DNA of 64,000 nucleotides from an uncultured Prevotellaceae bacterium (GCA_900319225.1 ONNV01000001.1:96663-160662), one strand, 5' to 3'. Shown: positions 3,510 through 56,257, numbered from the stretch's first letter. Program-made: numbers and translations. Notes: a model not told the origin generated them from the sequence alone.

Positions 3510-3576
3510 TGACCCATTAGGGACAGTCCCCCTGTGCCATCTTGCATGGCACAGGGGGACTGTCCCTAATGGGTCA
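3510..3576. terminator. Bidirectional hairpin with a perfect 31-bp stem and 5-nt loop, shared by convergent panB and the DEAD-box helicase gene
   Basis: TGACCCATTAGGGACAGTCCCCCTGTGCCAT (3510-3540), loop CTTGC, then the exact reverse complement (3546-3576). The helicase stop codon is the last 3 nt (TCA at 3574-3576). A second in-frame TGA for panB is the first 3 nt. Confidence 0.75.
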
Positions 3577-4785
3577 TTTCTTGGGTTTGTGGAAGAACTT
3601 CCTTTTCCCTTTGTAGGGAGTTCTGGGACGTTCTGCTTTGTACTCCGGAGCCTCGCCAAGCTCGGCGGGGAGGGGGACTTTGTAGACGTCTTTGCCTAGG
3701 AAACGCTCTATCTGGCGGAACTTGGGCTGGTCGTCCAGGCTGATGAAGGTGATGGCGCAGCCTTCGGCGCCGGCGCGGGCGGTTCGGCCTATGCGGTGGA
3801 CGTAGTCTTCGGGGTCGTGGGGGACGTCAAAGTTGATGACAAGGTCTATGTCATCTATGTCTATTCCGCGTGATACGATATCGGTGGCTACGAGTATGTT
3901 GATGTGACCGTTGCGGAACTTGTGCATGATTTCATCACGCTCTGCCTGAGCCAGGTCGGAGTGCATCTCGCCTACGTTCAGACCAAGGCGGCGCAGTGAT
4001 TTGGTTATCTCCTTGACCTTGAGTTTGGACGATGCAAACGCAATTACCCTCTTGGGGGCGTTGGCGCTGAACAGACTCTGTATGATGGGCAGTTTCTGGG
4101 CCTCGTAGCATACGTAGGCGGCCTGCAGGATCTTTTCGGCCGGCTTGGAGACGGCCAGTTTGACCTCTACCGGGTTGTGCAGGATGGTGCGGGCCATGCG
4201 CTGTATCTCATCGGGCATGGTGGCGGAAAAGAGCATGTTCTGGCGCTTGGCGGGCAGCTGCTTTACAATCTGCATGATGTCATCATAGAAACCCATATCG
4301 AGCATGCGGTCGGCCTCGTCAAGGATAAAGAATGATACCTTGCTCAGGTCTATGTTGCCCAGACTGATATGGCTGATAAGACGGCCGGGAGTGGCTACCA
4401 CGATATCGGTACCCATGGCAAAGCCGCGTTTTTCCTGCTCAAAGCGGATTCCGTCATTGCCTCCGTAGACGGCGGTTCCGGATATGTTGGTGAAGTAGGA
4501 GAATCCCTCTATCTGCTGGTCTATCTGCTGTGCCAGCTCGCGGGTGGGTACCATGATGAGGCAGTTCACCGCGTCCTGGGGGTAGTCTCCACTTGACAGT
4601 TTGTCAAGTACGGGCAGCAGGTAGGCGGCGGTCTTGCCGGTTCCGGTCTGTGCTATGCCTATAAGGTCATGTCCTTCTAAAAGTATGGGTATGGCTTTCT
4701 CCTGGATGGGAGTGCACTCCTGAAAATTCATTGCGTCTATGGCGTCAAGTAACGCCGGCTGGAAATCTAGCTCGTCAAATCTCAC
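3574..4785 (-). CDS. DEAD-box ATP-dependent RNA helicase (RhlE-like)
   Basis: 403 aa with a Q-motif region, AQTGTGKT (motif I), DEAD (..FFILDEADRMLD..), SAT and HRIGRTARAG motifs. Confidence 0.92.
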   Translation of the reverse strand: MRFDELDFQPALLDAIDAMNFQECTPIQEKAIPILLEGHDLIGIAQTGTGKTAAYLLPVLDKLSSGDYPQDAVNCLIMVPTRELAQQIDQQIEGFSYFTNISGTAVYGGNDGIRFEQEKRGFAMGTDIVVATPGRLISHISLGNIDLSKVSFFILDEADRMLDMGFYDDIMQIVKQLPAKRQNMLFSATMPDEIQRMARTILHNPVEVKLAVSKPAEKILQAAYVCYEAQKLPIIQSLFSANAPKRVIAFASSKLKVKEITKSLRRLGLNVGEMHSDLAQAERDEIMHKFRNGHINILVATDIVSRGIDIDDIDLVINFDVPHDPEDYVHRIGRTARAGAEGCAITFISLDDQPKFRQIERFLGKDVYKVPLPAELGEAPEYKAERPRTPYKGKRKFFHKPKK

Positions 4786-4795
4786 GGTGAAATGG

Positions 4796-5914
4796 TTATT
4801 TTGGTGCTTTTATGTAAAGGAATATAGCAATCGGTATGTAAATGAAATTGGGAAGCCACTCGGCCATGAAAGCAGACATGGAGCCTGTTATGGCAAAGTT
4901 TGATGAGACTATCTGGAATAGTATGTATCCGAAACTCAGTCCCAGACCTATGCCCAGATAGAGTCCCATGCCGCCCTTACGTTTACGGCTGGAGAGCGAT
5001 ACGCCCATCACGGTCAGGATGAATGCGGCGAATGACATGGCGTAACGTTTATGGTACTCAATTTCAAAGTCCTGTATGTTGCCCATGCCGCGCTCTTTCT
5101 GGCGACGTATGTATTCACGCAGTTCGGCCGATGACATGGTCTCCTGCTGGCCGTTCTCAATCAAGAAATCTGCCGGCTCAAAGTGGATTATGGTATCCAT
5201 GTCATTGCCCTGGCTTATGGATTCTATGTTGCTTGAAAGGTCACGGATCAAATAGTTGCGCACTTTCCAGTGGTATTTATCGGCTGCGAGAGTGTCATAT
5301 GTGACGCTGCGGGCGGTCATGTGTGATACCAGTTTCTTGCCTTCAAACTTGTCAAGCGTAAAGCGGTAACCGGTACGGGTCTCGTGGTTGTAGCTCTCCA
5401 TGTAGGCTATGATACCTTCCTCAACTTCAAGCTGTATGTTGTAGGCGCCACTTGAGTTGTCACGGTTGTAGTGGCTCATTCCGTACTTGTTCTCAAACGT
5501 AAGTCTTTTTATGCTGGCCTTGGGTATGACCTGTGATCCCAGATAGAGGGTGAAAGCGGCGATAAGGGCTGCGGACAGCATATACGGAATCATCATCCTC
5601 TTAAAACTCATTCCCGTTGAGAACATGGCGATTATCTCAGAGTTCTCGGCCAGTTTTGAGGTGAAGAATATGATGGCTATGAATACGAACAGCGGACTGA
5701 AAAGATTGATGAAATAGGGGATAAAGTTGAGATAGTAATCAAATATGATCTCCTTGGCCGATGCTGCATTGAGCTTGTCAATCTTCTCATTGAAGTCAAA
5801 GACCACCAGGATCACGATGATGAGCGCAATGGTAAAGAAGTAGGTTCCAAGGAACTTCTTTATGATGTACCAGTCAAGGCGTTTGAGCAGTCTGTGTCTG
5901 AAAGGACTTTTCAT
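4796..5914 (-). CDS. LptF/LptG family permease (YjgP/YjgQ)
   Basis: 372 aa. The N-terminus LLKRLDWYIIKKFLGTYFFTIALII is typical of LptF/G, with multiple TM segments flanking a large periplasmic loop. Confidence 0.8.
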   Translation of the reverse strand: MKSPFRHRLLKRLDWYIIKKFLGTYFFTIALIIVILVVFDFNEKIDKLNAASAKEIIFDYYLNFIPYFINLFSPLFVFIAIIFFTSKLAENSEIIAMFSTGMSFKRMMIPYMLSAALIAAFTLYLGSQVIPKASIKRLTFENKYGMSHYNRDNSSGAYNIQLEVEEGIIAYMESYNHETRTGYRFTLDKFEGKKLVSHMTARSVTYDTLAADKYHWKVRNYLIRDLSSNIESISQGNDMDTIIHFEPADFLIENGQQETMSSAELREYIRRQKERGMGNIQDFEIEYHKRYAMSFAAFILTVMGVSLSSRKRKGGMGLYLGIGLGLSFGYILFQIVSSNFAITGSMSAFMAEWLPNFIYIPIAIFLYIKAPK

Positions 5915-5926
5915 ATCTCCAAAAGG

Positions 5927-12595: not shown

Positions 12596-12670
12596 CGGGA
12601 TGTAGTTCAGTCCGGTTAGAATGCCTGGTTTGGGACCAGGTGGTCGAAGGTTCGAATCCTTTCATCCCGA
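12596..12670 (+). tRNA. tRNA-Pro (anticodon TGG)
   Basis: Manual cloverleaf: acceptor CGGGATG/CATCCCG, anticodon stem CCTGG/CCAGG with loop TTTGGGA, T-arm GAAGG-TTCGAAT-CCTTT, discriminator A. No encoded CCA. Confidence 0.9.
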
Positions 12671-12674
12671 CTAT

Positions 12675-12710
12675 GAAACAGTGGCTCAAATAGCTGCTGT
12701 TTCTTTTTTT
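12675..12710 (+). terminator. Rho-independent terminator after tRNA-Pro
   Basis: Stem GAAACAG (12675-12681) / CTGTTTC (12697-12703), followed by a T7 run. Confidence 0.55.
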
Positions 12711-12741
12711 GCAATCTTAGCTGATTTTGGAAAGATTCCTG

Positions 12742-12759
12742 TCGGGATGAAAGGATTCG
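12742..12759. repeat. Inverted copy of the 3' end of tRNA-Pro (18/18 nt)
   Basis: TCGGGATGAAAGGATTCG is the exact reverse complement of 12653-12670 (T-loop, T-stem and acceptor 3' strand of the adjacent tRNA-Pro). Confidence 0.9.
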
Positions 12760-12780
12760 GACCGTGGGGCAAGGCCCCAC

Positions 12781-12894
12781 TTACCTCCTTTTATTTTGCT
12801 ACGCAAAAGCGCTCCATTTCATTTCGCTTGGCGGCCCTCCGGGACCGCGGTCTCGTTCGTCGCCTCACTCGCTCCGATACGTTTGTCCCTGCGT
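12781..12894. repeat. tRNA-downstream conserved element, copy 1 (homologous to 44984-45096)
   Basis: Shared blocks: TACCT.CTTTTA.TTTGCTA.CGCAAA ... GCGGCCCTCCGGGACCGCG.TCTCG ... CTCGCTC ... ATACGTT.G..CCTGCGT. Confidence 0.8.
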
Positions 12895-12977
12895 TATTCT
12901 TCAATTTTCAATTCTCCACTCTCAATTATTTTATAAAAAGGTTGGGGGGTAATAAAAAAGGTGTACCTTTGCGGTCA

Positions 12978-17777: not shown

Positions 17778-18920
17778 ATGGACGTAAAGCAACTGCATAC
17801 ACCGTGTTACGTCATTGACCGTGACCGCCTGGAGGCTAACCTCAAGGTGCTGCGCGGCGTAATGGACCGTACCGGCTGCCGAATCCTGCTGGCACAGAAG
17901 GCGTTCAGCTGCTATGCCGTCTATCCGCTTATATCACAATATCTCTGTGGCGCAACCGCAAGCGGGCTCTTTGAGGCCCGCCTGTGCCACGAGGAGATGC
18001 CCGGTCGTGAGAATCACATATTCTCTCCTGCGTTCCGTGAGGAGGATATGCCGGAGATCCTGAAAATATGCGACCATATTGTTTTCAATTCCATTAGGCA
18101 GCTTGAATTGTTTGGCTTTAGAGCCAAGGAGGCTGGGCAGCAGGTTGGCTTGCGTATCAATCCGCAGATTTCTACCCAGCCGGCTGAGCATGCAATCTAT
18201 GATCCTTGCGCTCCCGGGAGTAGGTTGGGTGTAACTTTGGCGGAGTTCCTTGATGTACCTGCTGAGTTGCTTTCTTTGCTTGATGGCCTCCATTTCCATA
18301 CTCTCTGTGAGCAGAATTCCGATGATCTGGAAATAACTCTGAACGGCTTTGAGGAGCAGTTCCGTGAGTGGCTCCCGCAGATGAAATGGGTAAACTTTGG
18401 CGGCGGACACCATATTACCCGCGCTGATTACGATATTCCGCGTCTGGAGCGTTGCATCAAACGTATGAGCGAAGGTTATGGCCTTATGGTCTATCTTGAG
18501 CCGGGTGAGGCAATCGCCCTCAACGCCGGTTATCTGCATACCCAGGTGCTTGAGGTGCAGCATCACGCAGGAGCAATGGATATCGCAATCGTGGATACAT
18601 CGGCCGCATGTCATATGCCCGATGTGCTTGAGATGCCTTATCGGCCTCCGCTCAGAGACAGCGGTCAGCCTCAGGAAAAGAAATACACCTACCGCCTGGG
18701 AGGCCCCACATGCTTATCGGGCGATATAATAGGGGAGTACTCGTTCGATACCCCATTAAAAGAAGGTCAGACCCTCATATTCGAGGATATGGCCATCTAC
18801 TCCATGGTCAAGAACAACACCTTTAACGGTATGCCCCTGCCGTCAATCTACCTTAAGCAGGGTTCAGACTACACTCTGATCAAATCCTTCACTTACACTG
18901 ACTTCAAGTCCCGCCTTTGA
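17778..18920 (+). CDS. nspC: Carboxy(nor)spermidine decarboxylase
   Basis: 380 aa, alanine-racemase-fold decarboxylase: TPCYVIDRDRLEANLKVL..AQKAFS..NFGGGHHIT..GGPTCLSGD. Its stop codon TGA is the first 3 nt of a hairpin repeat. Confidence 0.85.
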   Translation: MDVKQLHTPCYVIDRDRLEANLKVLRGVMDRTGCRILLAQKAFSCYAVYPLISQYLCGATASGLFEARLCHEEMPGRENHIFSPAFREEDMPEILKICDHIVFNSIRQLELFGFRAKEAGQQVGLRINPQISTQPAEHAIYDPCAPGSRLGVTLAEFLDVPAELLSLLDGLHFHTLCEQNSDDLEITLNGFEEQFREWLPQMKWVNFGGGHHITRADYDIPRLERCIKRMSEGYGLMVYLEPGEAIALNAGYLHTQVLEVQHHAGAMDIAIVDTSAACHMPDVLEMPYRPPLRDSGQPQEKKYTYRLGGPTCLSGDIIGEYSFDTPLKEGQTLIFEDMAIYSMVKNNTFNGMPLPSIYLKQGSDYTLIKSFTYTDFKSRL

Positions 18921-18946
18921 CACAGAAGGATCAGTTCCCTGTGTTA
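18918..18946. repeat. TGACACAG-family hairpin repeat, copy 1 (left direct repeat flanking the ATPase gene)
   Basis: TGACACAGAAGGATCAGTTCCCTGTGTTA: stem of about 8 bp and a 13-nt loop. It is 28/29 identical to 20386-20414. Confidence 0.9.
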
Positions 18947-19038
18947 CACGTGAGCAAAAACTATGAATTAATCAGAGTTTATATGATTTTTTTATAGTTT
19001 TGATTATATTTGCCTCAAAAATAATGGCAGTAATTGCA

Positions 19039-20388
19039 ATGAAAAGAAAAATTACACAGCAACTTATAGACTGGAAAAACAGGCCTGACCATAAGCCTCT
19101 CATCCTGCAGGGTGCCCGTCAGGTTGGTAAAACATACATTCTTGAAGAATTCGGGCGCCAACACTATAAGAATTATATCAAGGTGAGCCTTGATCTGGTT
19201 CCTGATGTTCGCAATTTCCTTAAGGACAATATCAATCCTTTGGAAATAATCGCTTATCTGGAAACATTGTACAATGTCAGGATTATCCCGCATGATACAC
19301 TTGTCATACTGGATGAGATTCAGGACTGCAAACGGGCGCTGCTTGCCCTCAAATATTTCCAGGAGGATTATCCACAGTATGATGTCGTGGCCGCAGGAAG
19401 CCTTCTGGGTGTTGCCGTCAATCAGGGAAACAAGCCGGATCAGGAAGAAACTCAAGAAAAGCAGGAAGAAGAGTTTTCATATCCGGTAGGTAAGGTCGAT
19501 GAGTTGCGCCTTTACCCTATGGATTTTGAAGAGTTCCTGTGGGCTATGAATATGGATGTTCTGGCTGAGGATATCCGCACTCACTTCAATTCAAATGAGG
19601 CAATGCCGGCTTCAGTTCATCAGTTGGCTCTGGATTATTATCAGCGGTACCTTATAATTGGAGGTATGCCTGAGAGCGTAGGAAAATACGTTGAGACCCA
19701 CAGTTACCTTGAGTGCCGTACTGTACAGCAGTCCATTCTGCTTGGTTACAATGCCGATATGGCCAAATACGCCAAACCGGGAACCACAGTCAAGATCAGA
19801 GCCTGCTTTAACTCCATTCCTGCGCAGTTGGCCAAAGAGAACCGCAAGTTCCAATACAAGCTTGCGCAAAAAGGCGGTACTGCCAAGATATTCGGTGAGG
19901 CAATAGAATGGCTCATCCTGGCCGGGGTAGTCCACAAGTGCAAATTGATATCCCATGGTTTCATTCCCATCTCGGCACAGGAAGATGACAGTGATTTCAA
20001 GATCTATATGTCCGATATCGGCCTACTTAACACAAAAGCCCAGATGCCTGCCCAGATGCTCCTCAATTCCATTGAAACTGATAACACCTTCCTTGGTTCC
20101 GTAGCAGAGAACTACGTTGCTCAGGCTCTCTCTGCCAACGGCATTACGCTCCGTTATTGGAAAAACGATAATACTCAGGAGGTGGAGTACATCCTGCAGG
20201 ATGGTATGAGTGTCATTCCATTGGAGGTCAAGAAAGGCAGGAAGGTTGATGCAATCAGCATGAACAATTTCAAGAAAACCTACAAGTGTCCTTTTGCTTA
20301 CCGCATATCAGGAAAAAACTTCGGGATGGCCAATGATATAAAGTCAGTTCCCCTTTATGCTGTTTTCTGCATTGAGGCTAGAGAATGA
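19039..20388 (+). CDS. AAA+ ATPase with a C-terminal DUF4143-like domain (AAA_14 family)
   Basis: MKRKITQQLIDWKNRPDHKPLILQGARQVGKTYIL (Walker A) and LVILDEIQ (Walker B). The start is trimmed to the ATG at 19039 because a TAtaTTTG -7 box (19005-19012) lies inside the track ORF. The ATG at 19024 is an alternative. The gene is visibly more AT-rich than the polyamine genes. Confidence 0.8.
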   Translation: MKRKITQQLIDWKNRPDHKPLILQGARQVGKTYILEEFGRQHYKNYIKVSLDLVPDVRNFLKDNINPLEIIAYLETLYNVRIIPHDTLVILDEIQDCKRALLALKYFQEDYPQYDVVAAGSLLGVAVNQGNKPDQEETQEKQEEEFSYPVGKVDELRLYPMDFEEFLWAMNMDVLAEDIRTHFNSNEAMPASVHQLALDYYQRYLIIGGMPESVGKYVETHSYLECRTVQQSILLGYNADMAKYAKPGTTVKIRACFNSIPAQLAKENRKFQYKLAQKGGTAKIFGEAIEWLILAGVVHKCKLISHGFIPISAQEDDSDFKIYMSDIGLLNTKAQMPAQMLLNSIETDNTFLGSVAENYVAQALSANGITLRYWKNDNTQEVEYILQDGMSVIPLEVKKGRKVDAISMNNFKKTYKCPFAYRISGKNFGMANDIKSVPLYAVFCIEARE

Positions 20389-20414
20389 CACAGAAGGATC
20401 AGTTCCCTGTGTCA
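20386..20414. repeat. TGACACAG-family hairpin repeat, copy 2 (right direct repeat flanking the ATPase gene)
   Basis: TGACACAGAAGGATCAGTTCCCTGTGTCA. Its first 3 nt are the ATPase stop codon. Confidence 0.9.
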
Positions 20415-20501
20415 TTCGTAGAGGTGGACCTTTAGCTTAAAAAGTAAGGCGGACGCTTTCGCGCCCGCCACATACCTTTGTCGGACTATTGTAGTCACCA
20501 A

Positions 20502-20594
20502 TCAGAGCATTTGTGCAGATTTCCTGTCCACCTTGCCGCACAGCAATATGCTAACGGCTGCTACGGTGGCTGTCAGTATGATTACGGTAATCAT
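20502..20594 (-). CDS. Candidate 30-aa hydrophobic peptide (MITVIILTATVAAVSILLCGKVDRKSAQML)
   Basis: ATG..TGA ORF found by hand; it is below the track's size cut-off. It encodes one predicted TM helix followed by a basic tail. Its first 17 nt form the palindrome ATGATTAC-C-GTAATCAT. A + strand -7 box (TACCTTTG, 20473-20480) would drive antisense transcription across it. Confidence 0.25.
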   Translation of the reverse strand: MITVIILTATVAAVSILLCGKVDRKSAQML

Positions 20595-20715
20595 GAATAA
20601 AATAGAGACAAACTATTGCATGCATCCGGCAATTTGTTCGTATATTTGTATATTTTTCATTATGTAAATTCTTGTACAAAAGGACTATAGAGGTAAAAAC
20701 TGTAAAATTTGATAA

Positions 20716-20762
20716 GTGACGCAAAGTGAAAGACGCAAAGTGAAACGACCCCAATGCGTCAC
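20716..20762. repeat. TGACGCA-family hairpin repeat with an internal tandem duplication
   Basis: GTGACGCAAAGTGAAA-GACGCAAAGTGAAA-CGACCCCAATGCGTCAC. The last 31 nt match 30031-30061 with one mismatch. It lies in the leader of the 1574-aa gene. Confidence 0.85.
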
Positions 20763-20802
20763 GTCATGTATTTGATTTTTAAATAATTAAACAAATATCA
20801 AC

Positions 20803-23800
20803 ATGCAAAGAAGTAAGTTTCTATTGATCTTTGCCTTGTTCTGCGGCTTGGTGCAGGAGGGTTGGGCACAGATTACTTTTCCCATCGTCTATGACGACGT
20901 GTGGGACGGTTCTTCGAAAACGAAGCCGGTGTATGATGTCGGCAGTGGCTATGTCATCATTAACCGTGCATCAGAACTGGCTTATATACACGAGCATTGG
21001 ACTGATGCCTCTGGTGACGGTGATTATGATAAGAAATATTTCAGGCATAAGTATTTGCTCAATGCAAACATTGACATGGGAGATGCTGTTTCGTGGACAC
21101 CTTTGGACAAAGACTTTGTCTCATCATTCGCAGGTGAATTTCATGGTGAAAATCACACCATTCGCATACACATTTGGGGGACGGACGACAATAATCAAGG
21201 TCTTTTTGCCACTAATGGCGGCAAAGTGCAAGATCTTCATTTGACAGGCAAAATAGAAGTCGGGAACTGTAAAAATGTAGGTGGAATTGCTGGGCAGAAT
21301 TTCGGAGTCATCAAAAACTGTTGGGTGAGTGCCGACATCAGTTCATCCAATAGCTATTTGGGTGGCATTGCCGGGGACAACGCCGAAAGTGATAACGGTA
21401 ATGCCGGAATAATAGAGTACTGCTGCATGACGGGTAATGTGACGAACACCGGAGGAAATTCCTATGTGGGTGGAATTGCCGGGAAAAGCGGTGATGGAAA
21501 TGGAGCAAAGACAGAGCTCCAGCACTGCACTTTCTACGGCACCGTGTCGGTGAACCACGACCAGCGCGATAAATACTTAGGTGCTGCATACGGAACTGTG
21601 CAGGATTTGTACGACGCATTCAACCAGAACGAGTACAACAATGCCAGCGGCATGGGCCTGTACCGCCAATCTATCAGTTATCCCTACGCCATCAACGTCA
21701 ACATTGTGGGAATCGGCACAGTCACGGTCAGTGCCGGTGGCGAGACTGGCATTACGCGTTGGCGCCCCGGCGAAACCGTCACGCTGACAAGGGAGTTAAT
21801 CCCGGTGAGTAGTGTCACCGTCACCGATACCAGTGGCAACAACGTTTCTGTTAGCGGCAATGAGACAAGCGGCTATACCTTCACAATGCCGAACAAAAGC
21901 GTCAACGTAGCGTGCGTCTTCGACTACGCCAACTGGCCCACGCAGGGCGATGGCACCGAGGACAGCCCATACCTTATCAGCAGTGCTGAGGACTGGCTCT
22001 TCTTTGCCCACAACGTCACCCTCGGCCGCTCGTACAGCGGCAAGGTCATCAGGTTGACCGACAACATCAACGTGAATGTGTCGGTGGGCAGTTGCAATGC
22101 AGCCAACGATAACGATTACAAGCCTTTCAGCGGCACATTTGACGGCTACGGCCACACACTGACCGTTAACCTGAGCAACCAGAGCCGCTTCGGTGCACCG
22201 TTCAAGTGCATCGAGAATGCTACCATCAGGAACCTGCGCACAGCAGGCACAATCGACGGGACGGGCAATGATAACGGCAAGTTGCTGTCAGGCTTAGTGG
22301 GCATCAGTTTTGGCAACACGACCATCACCGGGTGCATCAGCAGTGTGACGCTCACCACAGACTTCGGAGCCCGAGGCTATATAGACGCTGCCCTCGCTGG
22401 CTTTGTGGCCGGTACTGCAGGCGGCAGTCTTACCGTCAGCGGCTGTGTGTTCAACGGCTCGATGACGGGTGCTGGCAATCAGCGTTGCGCCGGAATCTCT
22501 GGCTATGAGTATTCCGATGTCGGAAAAGGTTACACCACTACTTCCATAAGCAACAGCCTCTTTGTCCCCGCCACGCTGACCGTCTCCACCATAGATGACG
22601 GCTATACGAAGACTCTCACCCGCGACCCCGATGCCATCATTACCAACTGCTACTACACCCAGACCCTCGGCACGACGCAGGGCACCGAGGCAAGTACGCC
22701 CACCGGCGACCCTGGCAACGTCGGTGACTTGGTGGAGGACTATGGCTTGGTAAAGGTATACGAGAACGCCATCTTCTTCAACGGCAAATACTGCGTGGTT
22801 CCCACTGCCACCACCGTCATCCAGCCCAAAGACGAATGGGATGCCGTCTGCTGGCAGACGCAGACCGCCCAGACAGACTGGACACCACTTAGTGCAGGCT
22901 CCACCACGGGGCAGACGCTCGGCAGCGTAGGCACCACGACATACTATTACATCACGGACAACCTCAACATCACCAACAGCAACGCTGGCGGCAGCGGCCT
23001 GACCGTCCGGGGCACGGTGTTTCTCTACATCCCCTCCGGCAAGACGCTCACCAGCACAGGTGCCAATGCCAGCGGACAGACGGGCGCAGGTGCCGGCGTT
23101 GAACTGACGGAGGGCAACACGCTCAACCTAATCGGTAGCGGCACGCTGAATGCCACGGGCGGCAATGCAGCCAATGGCGGCAATGGCGGCAGCGGCGATG
23201 ATGCATTTCTGATTTCTGGTAATACCATCCTCGGCGGCTCCGGTGGAACCGGTGGCAATGGCGGCGGCGGTGCCGGTGCAGGCATCGGCACACGCGGTGC
23301 GAATGGCGGCAGTGGCGGCACAGGCGGTCAACGCACTGGAAGCACTGGAGATGAGAAGACACAGAAAGGCGTTGATGGCAATGCCGGCAGTGTCGGTAGT
23401 ACTGCGGCTGCTATGGGTAACCTCTATGTGTACAAGGTATTTCAGCAGACCGAAGCCATAACGGTGAATGCCACTGGTGGCTCTGCAGGCTCAAACGGCA
23501 CTGGTGGCAATGGAGGCAGAACCGCTTCCCAGCACCCCGGTTCGATTGTATATATGGCTGCTGGTGGTGGTGGCGGCGGTGCCGGCGGCTTCGGCGGCGC
23601 AGCCAGCAACATCGGCACCGGTGGCCCCGGCGGTGGCGGCGGTGGCGGCGGTGCCGCAGGTAACGTGGCATGGGTGCTTTACTCCGGAACCCTGAATGGT
23701 TACTACTATGCAGGAGCCAAAGGCGGTAAAGGCGGCACCAATGCTAATGGCAGTTCTGCCCCCGATGGTGCTCAGGTTTTCTTGGACAATCCTAAGCATG

Positions 23801-25527
23801 CCGATCAACAAGGAGACGGCCTTAGAGCTTCTGCTGACGACTATGACGATTGTGATGGCTGGGAGAACGGCAACGCCTGGCATGACGGCGGGGCTGGCGG
23901 CGGCTGTGGCAATGCCAGCAGCGTCGGCACAGTCCAACGCGTGTGGGGCTCGCTGGTGCTGGGCAGCGGCACTGAGAATGCCCCGTACCAAATCAAGTGT
24001 ACCGCCGACTTCGACCAGTTGGCTGCCAATGTGAACGGCGGAACGACCTACGCGAACAAGTATTTCGTTCTGGTCAACGACATCAGCGTGACTACAATGG
24101 TAGGCACGGGCGATGCCGACTCGTTCCAAGGCACCTTCGACGGCAACGGCAAGACGCTGACCGTTGACTACAACACCACCGAGAATAACACCGCACCGTT
24201 CCGCCACGTGAAGAACGCCACCATAAAGAAACTGCACGTCACGGGCACCATCACCACCAGCGCACCATTCGCCGGCGGCATCGTGTCAGAGTCGCACGGT
24301 GCGCTGACCCTCACGGGTTGCGTCAGTTCGGTAGCCATCCATAGCAGCAAGAGCGGCGACGGTACCCACAGCGGAATAGTCAGCGTACTGAGCGGAAGGG
24401 GCAACACCATCCTCATTGACGGCTGTGTGTTTGACGGTTCCTTTGCCTCCACTACCGGCACTGTGGGCTGCGGCGGATTCGTGGGTTGGGGAGTATATAA
24501 CAAGCCTACCATCAAGAACTCACTGCTGAAGCCTAGTAGCGTCGATGCAAATATGATGGGCAGCAACTTCGCCCGCTGGCACACGGGCGATGAAGGCATT
24601 TACGAGCCTACCATCATCAACTGCTACTACGTTGCCACCAACAACCTGCCCACCGACCAAGGCATGGAGCCCGTCATCCTCAACAACACTCCCAGTAACC
24701 TTGGTGAACTGGTGTCTGATTATGACATGGTAAAGGCATACGCTAACGGCATCCTTTACGACGGCAAGTACTACATGTCATTCGTCAGGATCAGCCTGGC
24801 CGACGATGCCGACAACAGCACGGCCATCAGCGATGCCGACAGTTACTTTGCCGATGTGACGCTTCAGGGCCGCACGCTCTACAAGGACGGGGATTGGAAT
24901 ACACTCTGTCTGCCGTTTGACCTGACCGTGAGCGGCAGCGTGCTGGACGGTGACAACGTCAATGTGATGGTACTGGATGATGCAAACTCAAATCTCACCG
25001 GAACCACTCTTACGTTGGACTTCGCCGACGCTCCTGCCACCATTCCCGCCGGCACCCCGTTCATAATCAAGTGGGGTGCAGAGGGCGATGACATCTCGGC
25101 TCCAGTGTTCAATAATGTAATTATCAATGCACAGGCTTCGACCAGTGTTGGTTTTAACGGCGGTCAGTTTGTAGGCTGCTACTCACCGTTTGAGATAACT
25201 AACGATAACATAGGTGAGATAGTCTATCTTGGTGCCAATAACATAGTAGGTTACGCAGAGGCTCCCAGAACGTTGCGTTCCTGCCGTGCCCACTTCTATC
25301 TGCCCGAACCACCTTCCGGTAACCGTGCTATGATGCGTGCCGTTGTCAGATTCCACGGCTCAGACGGCACCACCACCGTAGTATATGATATCCCGAGTGG
25401 TGCCGGCAGTAAGTCCATGCTTGAAGGCTGGTACACTATAGACGGCCGTCAGCTACAGGAGGAGCCTACAGAGAACGGCATCTATCTGTATAACGGTAAT
25501 AAGGTACTAATCAATGAAAGGAGGTAA
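20803..25527 (+). CDS. Giant secreted or cell-surface protein with GLUG-type repeats, an internally duplicated module and a glycine-rich core
   Basis: 1574 aa. Signal peptide MQRSKFLLIFALFCGLVQEGWAQ. GLUG-like units (NVGGIAGQNFGVIKNC, YLGGIAGDN, YVGGIAGKS). Two paralogous modules (about 21946-22800 and 23962-24780) flank a GGxGGxG-rich segment (about 23050-23935). The C-terminal tail is WYTIDGRQLQEEPTENGIYLYNGNKVLI. Confidence 0.85.
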   Translation: MQRSKFLLIFALFCGLVQEGWAQITFPIVYDDVWDGSSKTKPVYDVGSGYVIINRASELAYIHEHWTDASGDGDYDKKYFRHKYLLNANIDMGDAVSWTPLDKDFVSSFAGEFHGENHTIRIHIWGTDDNNQGLFATNGGKVQDLHLTGKIEVGNCKNVGGIAGQNFGVIKNCWVSADISSSNSYLGGIAGDNAESDNGNAGIIEYCCMTGNVTNTGGNSYVGGIAGKSGDGNGAKTELQHCTFYGTVSVNHDQRDKYLGAAYGTVQDLYDAFNQNEYNNASGMGLYRQSISYPYAINVNIVGIGTVTVSAGGETGITRWRPGETVTLTRELIPVSSVTVTDTSGNNVSVSGNETSGYTFTMPNKSVNVACVFDYANWPTQGDGTEDSPYLISSAEDWLFFAHNVTLGRSYSGKVIRLTDNINVNVSVGSCNAANDNDYKPFSGTFDGYGHTLTVNLSNQSRFGAPFKCIENATIRNLRTAGTIDGTGNDNGKLLSGLVGISFGNTTITGCISSVTLTTDFGARGYIDAALAGFVAGTAGGSLTVSGCVFNGSMTGAGNQRCAGISGYEYSDVGKGYTTTSISNSLFVPATLTVSTIDDGYTKTLTRDPDAIITNCYYTQTLGTTQGTEASTPTGDPGNVGDLVEDYGLVKVYENAIFFNGKYCVVPTATTVIQPKDEWDAVCWQTQTAQTDWTPLSAGSTTGQTLGSVGTTTYYYITDNLNITNSNAGGSGLTVRGTVFLYIPSGKTLTSTGANASGQTGAGAGVELTEGNTLNLIGSGTLNATGGNAANGGNGGSGDDAFLISGNTILGGSGGTGGNGGGGAGAGIGTRGANGGSGGTGGQRTGSTGDEKTQKGVDGNAGSVGSTAAAMGNLYVYKVFQQTEAITVNATGGSAGSNGTGGNGGRTASQHPGSIVYMAAGGGGGGAGGFGGAASNIGTGGPGGGGGGGGAAGNVAWVLYSGTLNGYYYAGAKGGKGGTNANGSSAPDGAQVFLDNPKHADQQGDGLRASADDYDDCDGWENGNAWHDGGAGGGCGNASSVGTVQRVWGSLVLGSGTENAPYQIKCTADFDQLAANVNGGTTYANKYFVLVNDISVTTMVGTGDADSFQGTFDGNGKTLTVDYNTTENNTAPFRHVKNATIKKLHVTGTITTSAPFAGGIVSESHGALTLTGCVSSVAIHSSKSGDGTHSGIVSVLSGRGNTILIDGCVFDGSFASTTGTVGCGGFVGWGVYNKPTIKNSLLKPSSVDANMMGSNFARWHTGDEGIYEPTIINCYYVATNNLPTDQGMEPVILNNTPSNLGELVSDYDMVKAYANGILYDGKYYMSFVRISLADDADNSTAISDADSYFADVTLQGRTLYKDGDWNTLCLPFDLTVSGSVLDGDNVNVMVLDDANSNLTGTTLTLDFADAPATIPAGTPFIIKWGAEGDDISAPVFNNVIINAQASTSVGFNGGQFVGCYSPFEITNDNIGEIVYLGANNIVGYAEAPRTLRSCRAHFYLPEPPSGNRAMMRAVVRFHGSDGTTTVVYDIPSGAGSKSMLEGWYTIDGRQLQEEPTENGIYLYNGNKVLINERR

Positions 25528-25538
25528 TCACTATCACT

Positions 25539-25670: not shown

Positions 25671-25672
25671 AT

Positions 25673-25701: not shown

Positions 25702-25710
25702 ATCAGTAGA

Positions 25711-26999: not shown

Positions 27000-27002
27000 T
27001 CT

Positions 27003-42812: not shown

Positions 42813-43325
42813 ATGTCCCAAGACAGAAAGCAGGAGGGCTTGACCGCCCTTGGTAACAAGACAGCATATTCAAACACTTACAATCCGGATGTCCTGGAGG
42901 CGTTTGAGAATCTTAATAAGGAGAATGACTACTGGGTGCGTTTTAACTGCCCGGAGTTTACAAGTCTCTGCCCTATAACCGGACAGCCCGATTTTGCGGA
43001 GATTCGCATCAGCTATATCCCTGATGTAAAGATGGTTGAGAGCAAGTCACTCAAACTCTATCTGCACAGTTACCGCAATCACGGCGGATTCCACGAGGAC
43101 TGCGTGAACCGCATCATGAAGGACCTTATCAAACTGATGGATCCCAAGTACATAGAGGTGACCGGTTTCTTTGTTCCGCGTGGCGGCATATCGATATATC
43201 CCTATGCCAACTACGGCCGCAAGGGCACCAAGTACGAGACTCTTGCCGAGCAGAGAATGTGGAATTGGGGACAGTCCCCTTTTCCACATGTCCCCAATTC
43301 CACATTTTCACATGACAAAGACTGA
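42813..43325 (+). CDS. queF: NADPH-dependent 7-cyano-7-deazaguanine (preQ0) reductase
   Basis: ..[58 protein letters not shown]... The last ~22 codons ([22 protein letters not shown]) are encoded by a hairpin repeat. Confidence 0.9.
43258..43312. repeat. GGGGAC-N-GTCCCC hairpin repeat (expanded copy of 25711-25749)
   Basis: TGTGGAATTGGGGACAGTCCCC-TTTTCCACATGTCCCC-AATTCCACATTTTCACA. Confidence 0.85.
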
Positions 43326-43896: not shown

Positions 43897-43931
43897 AATG
43901 TGGAAAAGGGGACAGTCCCCTTTTTCACATT
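43897..43931. repeat. GGGGAC-N-GTCCCC hairpin repeat at a convergent gene junction
   Basis: AATGTGGAAAAGGGGA-CAG-TCCCCTTTTTCACATT (one arm mismatch). It starts 1 nt after the ybaK-like stop and ends 1 nt before the stop of the minus-strand gene. Confidence 0.8.
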
Positions 43932-44847: not shown

Positions 44848-44924
44848 GTGCCCGTAGTTCAGTTGGTTAGAGCGTCAGATTGTGGTTCTGAATGTCGTGG
44901 GTTCGAGTCCCACCGGGCACCCCA
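44848..44924 (+). tRNA. tRNA-His (anticodon GTG), with G-1 and an encoded CCA
   Basis: Acceptor GTGCCCG/CGGGCAC with an extra 5' G opposite the discriminator C. Anticodon stem TCAGA/TCTGA with loop TTGTGGT. T-arm GTGGG-TTCGAGT-CCCAC. CCA at 44922-44924. Confidence 0.9.
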
Positions 44925-44961
44925 AAAGAAAAAAGAGGTCATTCGGCCTCTTTTTTCTTTT
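44924..44961. terminator. 15-bp-stem hairpin terminator after tRNA-His
   Basis: AAAAGAAAAAAGAGG - TCATTCGG - CCTCTTTTTTCTTTT. Confidence 0.65.
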
Positions 44962-44980
44962 GGGGTGTCCGGTGGGACTC
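44962..44980. repeat. Inverted copy of the 3' end of tRNA-His (18/19 nt)
   Basis: GGGGTGTCCGGTGGGACTC compared with the reverse complement of 44905-44923 (GGGGTGCCCGGTGGGACTC). Together with the terminator this makes 44905-44980 a near-perfect palindrome with 34-bp arms. Confidence 0.9.
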
Positions 44981-44983
44981 CAG

Positions 44984-45096
44984 TACCTTCTTTTAGTTTG
45001 CTAACGCAAACCCGTTCACTTCGTTCACTCAGCGGCCCTCCGGGACCGCGTTCTCGCTCCAAGCATTCGCTCGCCCCAATACGTTAGCACCTGCGT
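44984..45096. repeat. tRNA-downstream conserved element, copy 2 (homologous to 12781-12894)
   Basis: The same ordered blocks as copy 1, including the identical 19-mer GCGGCCCTCCGGGACCGCG and the terminal CCTGCGT. Confidence 0.8.
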
Positions 45097-45280
45097 GAAT
45101 ATCCAATACCTACGGCATTGGATTGAATGGGAGAACATGCGGATTACCCAGCCATTAAAATGGCTGGCTACCCATATCTTGTGCCTAGCGGCACAACAAC
45201 ATGCCGTAGGCATGGGATTAAGGTAGCCAGCCAATTCATTGGCTGGATCTTTCCAATTATAAATACATTTCCCTTTTGGT

Positions 45281-47536: not shown

Positions 47537-47625
47537 ACGCGAACAGAAGGTTTAGCTCGACGAAGTCAACCGTCCCCAACGCGAACAGAACCGTCCCCAA
47601 CGCGAACAGAACCGTCCCCTTTGCG
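47537..47625. repeat. Tandem array of ACGCGAACAGAACCGTCCCCA units filling the intergenic gap
   Basis: Full units lie at 47579-47599 and 47600-47619. An upstream unit (47537-47578) is split by an 18-nt insertion. The array ends CCCCTTTGCG and shares the AGAACCGTCCCC core with the 26918 and 56142 elements. Confidence 0.85.
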
Positions 47626-49716
47626 TTATTTATACGGATCCTTGTTGCCCGGTTTCCACGTGCAGCCACCGGCCAGGATGGGGTAGACAACCGACGGGAA
47701 ACAGAGACTCTGATAAATTGTATACTCGTTGTTCTGGTAATTGTCCAGGATATCTATGTAAGCACGCTCACGGGGTGTCCTGTTGCGGCTAATTGCCGGA
47801 TAACTAGGATAGTTACGTACGTAATTGCCTGCTCCGAATACCAGTATTCCCGGACGCGGACCCCATCCCTTCTCAATAGTGTATGCACTCTCGCGGTCAT
47901 GCGGCCAGTGTACCTGATTGAATCCCAGGGTAGTCATGTAGCACTTGCCCAGCGGGTTCAGTCCAAGGGCGTAGTCCATCATCTGGCTTACCACATCAAT
48001 GTACTCCTGATTGCCGGTGAGCCTCCACATAAGAACTATGGGAAATGAGTATTGTCCCTGGGCCACGTTGCTGCCCCACCAGTTCACGTTGATGGATACT
48101 CCGTTGGGGTAGGCGTTCTCTTTGAATGCAGCCATCTGGGATGCAACGGTTACGGTAAGTACATCCATGAACTTCAGTACGGTTGCCGGGTCAGTCTTGT
48201 TGGCAGGGGCAAGCAGGTAACTGAAAAAATAGGATGTCAGCCAGCCGCGCTCGGCAAATATCTCCGATCCCTGATTATAGGTATCCTTCATTGTCATGGC
48301 GTCATAGGCATGCTCCTTTACATACTCGTGGCAGGCCTCATCGCCGGTCATCAGGTATTTCTCCACATTGTAATACATCTGGAATGTGGCAGGCATCTGG
48401 CGGTTACGCTCGGCATAAACCCTTTCTGATGCGCTGTGTGCCAGCTCTGCACGCTCAGCATACTCCTTGCTCTTGGCCTCGTCATAAGGCTTTATGATGC
48501 GGGCAAAATGGTAGAACAGGCCCGATGCCCAGGCCGATGTACGCGGGTCAAGCACCTCGGACCCGAACAGATGGTCCTCAAAGTCATATGTGGTAAAGGG
48601 CGAGTAGCCGTTGGTCTCGGTTCCCCATGGAATCTGGCCGTCCTCCTCCTGGAAGTATTTCCAGAACATGGTGCCCCATTCAGCCTCGTCAAGGATATCG
48701 GGAATGCCGTTGCCCTTGCCCAGTATGTTAAACTGATTGTCAAACTTATCGGGTATATTGAACTGGTCATCGGTAAAGAGGCTGGGGAATGCCTCGAACG
48801 TGGTGAGCAAGGTGCTGGGTACGTCCATGTGGTAGGTGCGGCGGTCTGCATCGCCTGCATCATGGTAACCGCCCCATGCCTGGATGGTGGGCTCATCGCC
48901 CTTTACTACCAGGCTGGCCTCATTGATGCGGTAATAGGTCTGGTAGATTGTCTCATGACAGCGCTTGGTGCGGTAGCTGAAATCAGAGTAGGGCTCTATA
49001 ATCTGGATTCCGCAGCGCTGGTTGAACAGGGAGCGGAAACTGGTGTATGAGAGCTTCTGTGAGAACTGTCCGCCTACGCCAAATGGGTATGATGAACCGT
49101 AACCGTCAACTACGATCTTGTAGGGACCGCCCTCAGGTACCTGTGAGAGGTCAATGCGGTAGACATAATCTCCCGATGAACGGTCATCGCCAATCTCCAC
49201 AAGACGGCCCGACGTCACTTTCTTGCTCAGTTTGGACTTCTTGTACTGATATACGGTATACTTGGGCAGGTCACCCTCAATCTTCTTTACGCCGCCGTCG
49301 CCCAGATAGATGGCAAAGTTTGCAAAACGTTTGGTAGAGAGGGCACTGTATGCAACCTGATTGGTCTTGATGGCCTCACAGAATATATCCCTGTCATTGA
49401 AATTGAAGATGTAGCTGCCGTAGGGGGTATCAATAATGTATTTCTTTCCGTTAGTGAGGGTGGGCACGGTAAGGTAGATGAAATGGTCACACTGGTCTGC
49501 AGCTGCGGCAACACGGTTCACAGCCAGTGCCGGGGTCCCGTTCACCTTCCACTGGGTGGAATCAGATATGTCCACCTCATTGACATCGAGCGTGTCACTC
49601 TGATAGAAGAGTTCAATTACATTGTTTGAGGCTGTACGTATTTCACGTAAAGTAAGCCCGGCGCTGGCTGAGAGGGTTATCAGCTGGCTCAAAAATGCGG
49701 TTAGCAAGGTTTTCAT
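47626..49716 (-). CDS. Glycoside hydrolase family 9-like protein with an N-terminal Ig-like domain
   Basis: WGGYHDAGDADRR (compare the GH9 DAGD catalytic aspartates) and C-terminal ..NNEYTIYQS... The start is trimmed to MKTLLTAF.. because a minus-strand TAtcTTTG box (49740-49747) lies inside the longer track ORF. Confidence 0.65.
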   Translation of the reverse strand: MKTLLTAFLSQLITLSASAGLTLREIRTASNNVIELFYQSDTLDVNEVDISDSTQWKVNGTPALAVNRVAAAADQCDHFIYLTVPTLTNGKKYIIDTPYGSYIFNFNDRDIFCEAIKTNQVAYSALSTKRFANFAIYLGDGGVKKIEGDLPKYTVYQYKKSKLSKKVTSGRLVEIGDDRSSGDYVYRIDLSQVPEGGPYKIVVDGYGSSYPFGVGGQFSQKLSYTSFRSLFNQRCGIQIIEPYSDFSYRTKRCHETIYQTYYRINEASLVVKGDEPTIQAWGGYHDAGDADRRTYHMDVPSTLLTTFEAFPSLFTDDQFNIPDKFDNQFNILGKGNGIPDILDEAEWGTMFWKYFQEEDGQIPWGTETNGYSPFTTYDFEDHLFGSEVLDPRTSAWASGLFYHFARIIKPYDEAKSKEYAERAELAHSASERVYAERNRQMPATFQMYYNVEKYLMTGDEACHEYVKEHAYDAMTMKDTYNQGSEIFAERGWLTSYFFSYLLAPANKTDPATVLKFMDVLTVTVASQMAAFKENAYPNGVSINVNWWGSNVAQGQYSFPIVLMWRLTGNQEYIDVVSQMMDYALGLNPLGKCYMTTLGFNQVHWPHDRESAYTIEKGWGPRPGILVFGAGNYVRNYPSYPAISRNRTPRERAYIDILDNYQNNEYTIYQSLCFPSVVYPILAGGCTWKPGNKDPYK

Positions 49717-53857: not shown

Positions 53858-53863
53858 CGCGGT

Positions 53864-54745: not shown

Positions 54746-54758
54746 ATATTGAATGTGT

Positions 54759-56087
54759 TTATCTTCTCATCATTGCACCCAGGTTGGGCAGTTTGGCACC
54801 GGCCACGTTTTTCATCATCTTGCGGGTCTGCTCAAACTGCTTGAGCATGCGGTTAACCTCATTAAGCGGCACTCCGCTGCCCTTGGCTATGCGGTTCTTG
54901 CGTGACTGGCTCTTGTCCAGAAGCTCGGGGTTGCTGCGCTCCTGCGGGGTCATGGAGTATATCATGGCCTCAATGCCCTTGAACGCGTTGTCATCAATGT
55001 CTATATCCTTGATGGCCTTGCCCACACCGGGTATCATGCCCATCAGGTCTTTCATGTTACCCATCTTCTTGATCTGGCCAATCTGCTCCAGGAAGTCATT
55101 GAAATCAAACTTGCCCTTGCCCATCTTTTTCTGCAGGCGTTTGGCCTGCTCGGCATCGAACTGCTCCTGGGCACGCTCTACGAACGATACGATATCGCCC
55201 ATTCCCAGTATGCGGTCGGCCATACGGTCGGGATGGAATACATCGAACGCATCCATCTTCTCACCTGTTCCTACAAACTTGATGGGCTTGTTTACGACAG
55301 TACGTATTGAGAGGGCGGCACCGCCTCGGGTGTCACCGTCAAGTTTGGTCAATATCACACCGCTGAAGTCCAGACGCTCGTTGAACTCACGAGCTGTGTT
55401 TACGGCATCCTGACCGGTCATTGAATCTACTACGAAGAGTATCTCATTGGGTGAGACAGCCTCCTTAATCGCAGTAATCTCCTGCATCATCATCTCATCT
55501 ATGGCCAGACGGCCGGCGGTATCGATGATGACTACGTCATAACCCTTGGCGCGGGCCTCACGGATGGCGTTCTGAGCTATCTCTACGGGCTTGTTGTTGC
55601 CCTCCTCAGTATAGACCGTAACACCTATCTGCTCACCCAGGACCTTGAGCTGGTCTATGGCGGCGGGACGGTATACGTCGCAGGCTGCAAGCAGGGGCTT
55701 CTTGGCGCGCTTGGTCTTGAGCAGACCCGCCAGCTTGGCGCTGAATGTGGTCTTACCGGAGCCCTGCAGACCGGCCATCAGAATGACTGCGGGATGTCCC
55801 TTTACGTCTATGTCAACGGCCTCGCCGCCCATCAGGGTTGCCAGCTCATCATGAACCACCTTGACCATGAGCTGTCCGGGACGCAGGGATGTGAGCACGT
55901 TCATGCCCAGCGCCTTCTCCTTTACGGTGTCGGTGAACTGCTTGGCAACCTTGTAGTTTACATCGGCATCAAGCAGGGCCTTGCGTACATCCTTCAGGGT
56001 TTCGGCAACGTTAACTTCGGTGATTTTACCTTCACCTTTCAGTATCTTAAGGGACCTTTCAAGTCTTTCTGATAGATTTTCAAACAT
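54759..56087 (-). CDS. ffh: Signal recognition particle protein
   Basis: [18 protein letters not shown].., [15 protein letters not shown], and an M-domain rich in Met. The start is trimmed from 56141 to the ATG at 56085-56087, because the longer form begins inside an intergenic repeat. Confidence 0.93.
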
Positions 56088-56141
56088 GGACTTATTTTTA
56101 GAGACTGCAAAGTTAGTAAAAAGACTGCGACTTGCAGCCAT

Positions 56142-56257
56142 GGGGACGGTTCTATTTGGCTCCTAGGTGCAGAATTCTTTCTGACTGCGTATCAGGGCCA
56201 AATAGAACCGTCCCCAGTGGCCCTGATCTTACCGAGGTGCCAAATAGAACCGTCCCC
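56142..56257. repeat. Cluster of three GGGGACGGTTCTATTTGGC units (one forward, two inverted)
   Basis: The forward copy is at 56142-56160 and reverse-complement copies are at 56197-56215 and 56239-56257. An additional inverted pair ATCAGGGCC/GGCCCTGAT (56191-56199 / 56219-56227) brackets the middle copy. Confidence 0.85.

Follow-up and report, generated by a model that had tools for sequence, protein, structure and literature searches.

The enzymes of the insertion sequences IS608 and ISDra2 recognise subterminal hairpins in single-stranded DNA. In TIRtrons, the genes for tyrosine transposases associated with terminal inverted repeats (TIRYT) are flanked by inverted repeats that share the sequence GGGGWSAS; these repeats form 'moderately abundant' dispersed families, whose members occur alone, in dimers or in clusters (Di Nocera et al. 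2013, PMC3733652). TIRYT has been equated with TnpA-Y1 subclass 2.1, whose proteins carry the motifs NHVH and YIELNP (Quentin et al. 2018, PMC6006769). Group 1 of the tyrosine transposases associated with repetitive extragenic palindromic (REP) sequences (RAYTs) has the widest host range (21 classes), and its flanking 16-mers occur in ~12 genome-wide copies (Bertels et al. 2017, PMC5581495). Here we describe a superfamily of short hairpin repeats in a 64-kb stretch of DNA from an uncultured Prevotellaceae bacterium (GCA_900319225.1, ONNV01000001.1:96663-160662), hereafter called the window, in which an earlier note had distinguished four families of intergenic hairpins. These hairpins are probably REP-like miniature repeats of the class that goes with a single-domain Y1/HUH transposase of the RAYT group 1, TnpA-Y1 subclass 2.1 or TIRYT type. 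They would belong to this known kind as a new member, because they have their GGGGAC loop motif in common with repeats that flank Y1 genes in many phyla.

The window contains ~22 hairpin units at 14 loci, every one extragenic or on gene termini, which is ~1 hairpin per 3 kb, and at every coordinate listed in the earlier note the sequence described there is present. The three family 1 copies are 27-31 nucleotides (nt) long with 91-94% identity. The family 2 loop is AAACGACCCC, except in the copy at 33755. The loci are as follows.

3509-3577, no strand assigned: family 3, compound palindrome, like a REPIN (REP doublet forming hairpins) dimer, of two inverted TGACCCATTAGGGACAGTCCCCCTGTGCCAT units; 32-nt arms, 100% complementary; -42.4 kcal/mol, z -14.6.
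18918-18946, minus strand: family 1 hairpin TGACACAG-AAGGATCAGTTCC-CTGTGTTA with the motif GGGAACTGATCC on the minus strand; 28.2 bits, E 1.8e-4.
20386-20414, minus strand: family 1 hairpin; covariance model E 3.5e-4; its first TGA is the stop of an AAA_14/DUF4143 ATPase gene.
20716-20762, minus strand: family 2 variant with an internal duplication of the left arm (GTGACGCAAAGTGAAAGACGCAAAGTGAAACGACCCCAATGCGTCAC), 40 nt upstream of a gene encoding 1574 amino acids (aa); 31.1 bits, E 3.4e-5.
25672-25702, plus strand: family 1 hairpin, inverted relative to the copy at 18918.
25710-25742, no strand assigned: family 3 perfect palindrome ATGTGGAATTGGGGAC-T-GTCCCCAATTCCACAT; -16.7 kcal/mol, z -7.7.
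26918-26999, no strand assigned: family 4 REPIN-like dimer; 40-nt arms, 98% complementary; -49.8 kcal/mol; 47.7 and 46.8 bits.
29467-29497, minus strand: family 2 hairpin TGACGCA-TTCTTAAACGACCCCTT-TGCGTCA with the motif GGGGTCGTTT on the minus strand; the stop TAA (29478-29480) of a hydrolase gene lies in the loop.
30030-30060, minus strand: family 2 hairpin where the convergent ends of a GNAT and a radical-SAM gene overlap; 36.4 bits.
33755-33785, minus strand: family 2 hairpin with the loop AAACTACCCC; 94% identical to 29463-29497; E 0.012.
43257-43312, no strand assigned: family 3 hairpin with an adjacent half unit (43290-43312, GTCCCCAATTCCACAT), read through by the QueF open reading frame (ORF).
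43898-43930, no strand assigned: family 3 palindrome ATGTGGAAAAGGGGAC-A-GTCCCCTTTTTCACAT between convergent genes; 39.5 bits.
47537-47630, minus strand: family 4 tandem array of three 21-nt units (ACGCGAACAGAACCGTCCCCA on the plus strand) between two minus-strand genes; 38.4 bits.
56142-56269, no strand assigned: family 4 cluster of three units, at 56142-56168 (plus, abutting the ffh start codon), 56194-56227 (minus) and 56236-56269 (minus).

With two inverted dimers (3509-3577 and 26918-26999), a cluster (56142-56269) and a tandem array (47537-47630), the organisation is like that of REPINs and bacterial interspersed mosaic elements (BIMEs). The dimer at 26918-26999 consists of two inverted GGAGGGAGCCAAAGGGGACGGTTCTATTTGGCCCC units, each a hairpin with the loop word that recurs across phyla (see below).

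On the G-rich strand the four families align gap-free in one register, with a variable outer stem around a conserved apical GGG[G/A][A/T]C: TGACAC-AGGGAACTGATCCTTCT-GTGTCA in family 1, GACGC-AAAGGGGTCGTTTAAGAAT-GCGTC in family 2, TGTGGAAAAGGGGAC-A-GTCCCCTTTTTCACA in family 3 and GCC-AAAGGGGACGGTTCTATTT-GGC in family 4. The outer stem varies by compensatory substitution and the apical block is constant, as expected for the superfamily with shared sub-blocks that the earlier note had claimed. An alignment of 58 sequences supported 13 stem pairs; 83.6% of the cells paired versus 72.2 +/- 1.0% after shuffling, the covariation score was 0.322 versus 0.147, and slid controls reached 43-65% pairing. 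The apical words are GGGGACGGTTC in family 4, GGGGAC[A/T]GTCCCC in family 3 and GGGGTCGTTT in family 2; for family 1 it is tentatively assigned as GGGAACTGATCC. Family 4 units carry AAAGGGGACGGTTC[T/C]NTTT, and this family resembles a family 3 whose 3' arm has undergone C-to-T changes, with G-C turned into G-T at two fixed positions.

The family 4 word was then searched in 596 Gb of species-representative genomes as a pattern with 17 specified bases, AAAGGGGACGGTTCNNTTT, with ~70 matches to be expected by chance across the entire collection. At least 120 loci were obtained, nearly all of them in a hairpin context such as GAGTCAAAGGGGACGGTTCTCTTTGACTC. The matches listed come from more than ten phyla and include Omnitrophota, Aminicenantes, Nitrospirae, Clostridia, Lachnospiraceae, Actinobacteria, Planctomycetia, candidate phyla radiation (CPR) bacteria, rumen Bacteroidales and Prevotella metagenome-assembled genomes (MAGs); Butyrivibrio sp. 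NC2007 and Caldanaerobacter subterraneus are isolates among them. Units occur at these loci singly, as inverted pairs 10-100 nt apart and as 21-nt tandem arrays. In the 866 kb around the 120 listed loci, 138, 54, 33, 30 and 28 sites had 0, 1, 2, 3 and 4 mismatches to the word, compared with 0, 0, 0, 0 and 6 after shuffling, and the core GGGACGGTTC was 97-100% invariant in the variants with one or two mismatches. At the same loci 79% of the word copies were intergenic, and the flanks paired at 0.59 versus 0.41 +/- 0.015 in shuffled sequence. A full-text search of the literature for the motif string returned unrelated primers alone. A scan of viral contigs with a 15-mer gave mostly chance matches and was dropped.

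An all-against-all comparison of the ORFs within 2.5 kb of the motif at the 120 listed loci revealed a 200-270 aa Y1/HUH protein, starting with MPRxxR, as the commonest neighbour (8 loci and 2 fragments). From published frequencies (subclass 2.1 is present in 14.9% of strains with 1.9 copies each; PMC6006769), ~0.1-0.5 Y1 genes are expected in 866 kb. The protein matched the NCBIfam model NF047646, 'REP-associated tyrosine transposase', with E values of 1e-18 to 1e-22, and scored above the cutoff of PF01797 (Y1_Tnp); the match to the NCBIfam IS200 model was weak (19.6-21.4 bits versus a cutoff of 55), and no C-terminal helix-turn-helix was detected in a Pfam scan. Its sole match in the PDB was 4ER8, E. 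coli TnpA-REP bound to REP. N59, H60 and H62 as well as Y120, N124 and P125 were invariant in the alignment (NH[V/I]H and Y-x3-NP, the latter as Y[I/V]ExNP). Such motifs are the signatures of TnpA-Y1 subclass 2.1 (PMC6006769), whose proteins have NH[V/Y/F]H, a Y motif like Y[I/V]xLNP and a length of ~240 aa. The Y1 genes are bracketed by the repeats themselves: by AAAGGGGACGGTTCTATTT and its inverse (L106), by arrays in opposite orientation, with six 21-nt units in one and four in the other (L043), by family 3-like GGGGACAGTCAC..GTGACTGTCCCC hairpins plus a family 4 unit (L127), and by repeats at further loci (L157, L159, L160 and others). Such bracketing is the hallmark of a REPtron. The 21-nt periodicity around the L043 gene is the same architecture as that of the array at 47537-47630 in the window. 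Several of the Y1 ORFs in other phyla end within a repeat (...KENRPL).

The association also held in the reciprocal direction. A protein-profile scan of metagenome contigs returned 80 loci, 64 of them with both flanks, and an inverted repeat of at least 12 nt spanned the Y1 gene in 58 of the 64, mostly 35-170 nt from the start codon. GGGG[A/T][C/G] upstream with its complement downstream was present in 40 of the 64, and many of the flanking repeats are hairpins of like design, e.g. ATCAATGGGGTCAGACTCGATTGAT and AAACCGGGGACAGACCACGGTTT. Among the 51 loci with a scorable flanking 12-mer, subtypes included GGGGTCAGA (13), GGGGACAGA (9) and GGGGACGGT (7, family 4); GGGGACGTT (2, close to family 2) and GGGGACAGT (2, family 3) were rarer. 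Repeat type co-varied with the protein: motif distance correlated with protein identity at r = -0.49, and none of 2000 permutations was as extreme. Viral contigs contributed 16 homologues, one of them informative (L238); CATGACACGGGGACGTTTCGTTTGTCAT lies on one side of its gene and the inverse on the other, and this hairpin, with TGAC...GTCA ends and a GGGG[A/T]CGTTT loop (GGGGACGTTT), has the family 2 design. A profile search of a protein collection gave 3680 homologues, of which the best 120 came from environmental Omnitrophota, Patescibacteria and similar. The RAYT/TnpA-like partner that the earlier note had predicted thus exists in other genomes, as Y1/HUH genes flanked by the inverted loop motif.

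A word so strongly conserved across phyla could instead be a binding site or structured RNA motif that the host selects for a conserved cellular factor, in which case the hairpins would be immobile and the Y1 protein a domesticated partner or unrelated. The conserved G-T/G-U positions in the apical stem, a weak sense bias of single units at the listed loci relative to their upstream genes (26 versus 16) and the general view that RAYTs are domesticated (PMC5581495) fit such a role. We nevertheless regard it as unlikely: the units occur in both orientations, copy number and stem subfamilies vary by lineage, inverted dimers and arrays resemble REPs and BIMEs, and the sole recurrent neighbour is a homologue of a DNA transposase whose own gene is bracketed by the repeats. 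Moreover, Rfam searches of the window at gathering and E-value thresholds returned no family for the hairpins, just tRNAs and chance hairpin matches to miRNA models.

Compared with the described systems, the repeats are closest to TIRtrons. Both have a ~200-270 aa protein with NH[V/I]H and Y-x3-NP whose gene is flanked at ~40-170 nt by inverted GGGG[A/T][C/G] repeats, both occur as dispersed singles, dimers and clusters, and both have a wide, patchy phylogenetic spread. In contrast to the plain terminal inverted repeats (TIRs) of TIRtrons, the units studied here are hairpins with an apical word, the subtype GGGGACGGTTC is nearly invariant in more than ten phyla among the matches listed, and there are tens to ~100 copies per subfamily as opposed to ~12 copies of the flanking 16-mers in group 1. 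The subtype counts among the 51 gene-flanking repeats show that the published GGGGWSAS covers the majority subtypes alone. With the canonical REP/REPIN-RAYT systems (E. coli REPs and BIMEs, Pseudomonas REPINs) the hairpins have in common that they are short extragenic palindromes at gene ends, form inverted dimers and clusters, and go with a low-copy Y1/HUH gene that is bracketed by its own repeats and co-varies with the repeat type; they differ in having the conserved element in the loop or apical stem and in that the associated proteins fall into another RAYT group. The enzyme family and the recognition of subterminal hairpins are those of IS200/IS605 ends and their PATE-type derivatives, but the Y1 genes found here are low-copy, lack tnpB and are flanked by inverted rather than same-strand repeats. 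CGTC-tagged REPs have been reported in Bacteroidetes without a known transposase (Di Nocera et al. 2013, PMC3733652), and CCGTC also occurs in the family 4 word when this is read on the complementary strand; however, those REPs have an unpaired terminal CGTC, stems of 8-9 bp, loops of 4-5 nt and a CCA tail, none of which fits the units here. The REPs of the Bacteroidetes subclass 2.6 (Quentin Table S1) were also considered and set aside, being of the form GCTAG+CGCGAGCG, unlike these hairpins. No description of such repeats in rumen Bacteroidales was found in the literature. What the hairpins add to the class is the apical-word architecture, a cross-phylum invariant subtype, high copy number and a Bacteroidales host.

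The inverted-repeat shape also raised the question of miniature inverted-repeat transposable elements (MITEs) derived from a DDE-type insertion sequence, with TIRs and target-site duplications, or of integron-like attC sites; an AAA_14/DUF4143 gene lies cassette-like between two identical family 1 copies. Both are very improbable sources. The units measure just ~30 nt and are flanked by housekeeping genes, target-site duplications are absent from the flanks of families 1 and 2, R'/R'' boxes are lacking, and neither a DDE transposase nor an integrase is encoded in the window or recurs near the motif. Other candidates were weighed by eye and dropped: a hammerhead ribozyme (its CTGATGA arises from TGA plus TGAC and is not followed by a GAAA box), a tRNA T-arm mimic, guanidine-II ACGR hairpins, Tn3-family GGGG inverted repeats, CRISPR repeats, integron attC, sigma-54 or extracytoplasmic function (ECF) promoters, and LexA or CtsR boxes.

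Within the window the hairpins are strongly enriched outside genes. The exact family patterns have 0 expected occurrences in shuffled sequence; 14 of the 16 occurrences of GGGGACNGT fall within the intergenic 5.9% of the window and the other two belong to the tail of the QueF ORF, which derives from a repeat; 9 of 11 occurrences of GGGG[AT]CG[GT]TT are intergenic. Every unit folds as a hairpin (z = -1.9 to -15). A covariance model built from the four-family alignment gave 19 matches with E<0.05, all at known sites and none in gene bodies, two of them outside the training set (20725-20767 and 56128-56169). The earlier note had stated that nearly every longer intergenic gap contains a member. 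The enrichment is real, but the statement is too broad, because members occupy 12 of the ~20 gaps with a gene 3' end and none of the 6 divergent-promoter gaps.

This very preference for 3' ends would be expected of ordinary Rho-independent terminators, some of them bidirectional, that resemble one another by chance. Runs of A and T bracket some units (25710, 43898), and metatranscriptome contigs, which are unstranded, of low depth and without 3'-end resolution, reach into the cluster at 56179-56428, so that this region is transcribed. However, a scan for stems followed by a T-tract found no excess over shuffles (16 versus 16.1 and 19 versus 16.7), and the repeats fail this rule apart from one incidental partial match inside the array at 47537-47630. 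Families 1, 2 and 4 have loops of 13-17 nt, compared with 3-8 nt in intrinsic terminators, units point either way relative to transcription and also lie immediately upstream of gene starts (20716, 56142) or in tandem arrays, and terminators would leave the cross-phylum invariant 11-nt loop word flanking Y1 genes unexplained. Chance similarity of terminators is therefore quite unlikely. Taken together, the poor fit to terminators, the Y1 linkage, the co-variation and the dispersal of the repeats argue for the mobile, REP/MITE-like origin with a sequence-specific partner that had been suggested before.

Copy numbers were estimated from contig depth, by aligning source-metagenome contigs to short sequences that surround the hairpins at 29467 (family 2), 26918 (family 4) and 43898 (family 3); single-copy depth was ~16-18. 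The summed depth of 89 for family 2 corresponds to ~5 copies, of which three or more lie on other contigs. For family 4 a summed depth of ~1400 corresponds to ~85 copy-equivalents on 44 contigs, and for family 3 ~2140 corresponds to ~130 on 49 contigs, with a ~120-130-fold depth excess; since palindromy may double-count and other community members may add depth, these are taken as roughly 40-85 and 60-130 copies. Many distinct flanks were seen among the counted copies of families 2, 3 and 4. For family 1, no copy beyond the three in the window, all within 7 kb, was detected in the 4 metagenomes checked. Hence, families 3 and 4 and the ~5-copy family 2 are dispersed and multicopy, and family 1 is not; the motifs are not confined to the window, as they were found in other genomes and on other contigs of the source metagenome. 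Comparison of orthologous loci showed that the spacer between panB and the helicase gene differs between strains: the palindrome at 3509-3577 is present in the window and in L001, and five other contigs carry an island of at least 5.7 kb instead, with both gene ends altered. The island is bordered by family 4 units beside panB and by a family 3 hairpin beside the helicase gene in the contigs that extend to that side of the island (L002, L003). This spacer is an integration hot spot, and the islands of L002-L006 encode a Ser/Thr kinase and a leucine-rich repeat protein, or a HicA toxin and a SLFN/AlbA_2 protein. Metagenome contigs mapped to the window mostly break at the repeats; in one run 26944-27001 seemed to be deleted, which the palindrome may have caused during assembly.

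Several observations weigh against assigning the hairpins to the Y1-associated class. According to Quentin et al. (PMC6006769), subclass 2.1 genes lack REP-like sequences in their vicinity, and from this and the ~12 copies of Bertels et al. it follows that high copy number is not the published norm for group 1. Family 3 reads GGGGACAG on one strand and fits GGGGWSAS, but family 4 (GGGGACGG) and family 2 (GGGGTCGT) have G, not A, at position 7. The 5' GTAG/GT[AG]G foot of the hairpin is absent in all four families. The family 1 motif is divergent and has just three local copies. Only one clear orthologous polymorphism was seen, and closely related strains (L008) carry identical elements at the other sites. 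Neither a transposition event nor a target signature was observed. Finally, a search by tblastn and with a hidden Markov model of 76 homologues detected no cognate Y1 gene in the 64-kb window, in 17 kb of flanks or in the 8-kb Bacteroidales loci.

If the hairpins are repeats of a Y1/HUH transposase, its action can be pictured by analogy with IS608 TnpA and E. coli TnpA-REP. Where DNA is single-stranded at the replication fork, the enzyme would recognise the hairpin into which it folds. It would cut and rejoin hairpin DNA, a single-strand cut-and-paste mechanism, and copies would spread into the spacers at gene ends. Subfamilies with stems of their own have reached tens or about a hundred copies in the genome of this rumen Bacteroidales, and many copies lie exactly on gene ends, where their TGA...TCA termini supply the stop codon. 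A cognate enzyme would then be, or formerly have been, present in this genome; since the window contains no transposase gene, mobilisation here is what we infer rather than observe. A side role as 3' hairpin of mRNAs, as for E. coli REPs, is possible. The G-rich word lies on the minus strand in 11 of the 14 asymmetric units of the window, and GC skew suggests that the plus strand is the leading strand; the uneven strand distribution of the units may reflect a replication-strand bias of insertion, in a sample too small to judge.

At five loci (3574, 18918, 20386, 30058 and 33783) the terminal TGA or TCA of the element is indeed the stop of the adjacent gene. The palindrome at 3509-3577 occupies the entire spacer at which panB and the DEAD-box helicase gene converge and provides the helicase stop (TCA 3574-3576). 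The first TGA of the hairpin at 18918 ends a carboxynorspermidine decarboxylase-like gene, TCA 33783-33785 is the stop of an ABC ATPase gene, and TCA 30058-30060 is that of the radical-SAM gene, with the last codons of the GNAT ORF encoded by the same hairpin. The QueF ORF reads through 43257-43312, and therefore its last 22 codons are repeat-derived. Both the QueF ORF (42813-43325, last 22 codons) and the GNAT ORF (29503-30069, last ~13 codons) cross hairpins, so that their annotated C-termini are probably repeat-derived. The pseudo-peptide GTVP, which the earlier note had seen recurring in spurious ORFs, is simply GGG ACN GTY CCN read in frame.

The family 1 copies at 18918 and 25672 form a 31-nt inverted repeat pair (94%) that bounds 6.8 kb. 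This segment (18918-25702) carries the AAA_14/DUF4143 ATPase gene, between two identical family 1 copies, and the gene for the 1574-aa Gly-rich repeat protein, for which no Pfam match was found. The latter protein has 1567 or 1574 aa among strains, and many repeat-length joints occur in metagenome contigs (23.0-24.9 kb).

The window has a G+C content of 51% and encodes housekeeping functions (panB, lon, tgt, lptF/G, ffh, folD, queF, malQ and a polyamine operon) besides Bacteroidales hallmarks such as TAnnTTTG promoter boxes and DUF5128/DUF4934 proteins. Its DNA recurs nearly verbatim in gut metagenomes from cattle and sheep, and exact copies of its proteins are encoded on metagenome contigs of 0.28-0.51 Mb. 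The window itself is part of contig k127_603921 (511 kb) of ENA ERZ931635, and a related strain is represented by scaffold_27 of ERZ1051935. Two tRNA genes, Pro-TGG and His-GTG, were found with Rfam at the gathering score. An archaeal sRNA41 hit (RF02905) at 3510-3623 on the minus strand, with 46.3 bits versus a gathering score of 45, is most likely a false positive, because its alignment depends on the long palindrome. Downstream of each tRNA gene its own 3' end recurs in inverted form (12649-12671/12741-12763 and 44905-44938/44947-44980), and beyond that comes a common ~115-nt segment of ~75% identity with the core GCGGCCCTCCGGGACCGCG (12649-12900 and 44905-45100). This is a second repeat, unrelated to the hairpins, which may be a small RNA or the scar of an integration. 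An imperfect palindrome (45148-45246; 40-nt arms, 78% complementary) in the 356-nt spacer downstream of tRNA-His is unrelated to the GGGGAC families.

A wider proposal, which we consider quite possible without calling it likely, is that GGGGACGGTTC is the recognition site of a horizontally travelling subclass 2.1 Y1 clade present in more than ten phyla, and that this clade builds true high-copy REP/REPIN-like populations, with hundreds of units in a single genome such as that of this rumen Bacteroidales, the units inserting on gene ends and donating stops. If so, REP-RAYT biology would be far wider and more uniform in sequence than the species-specific picture from Proteobacteria. The assignment to the Y1-associated class would explain a conspicuous genome feature, in which many hairpins are fused to stop codons or read as spurious C-terminal tails. 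Recognising the hairpins would help gene calling in rumen Bacteroidales MAGs, and they break short-read assemblies, whose contigs end there. The published statement that subclass 2.1 lacks REP-like repeats may need to be revisited. Above all, a large and poorly characterised Y1 group, subclass 2.1 or RAYT group 1, would be tied to a hairpin with an invariant 11-nt word, and thus to a concrete biochemical substrate.

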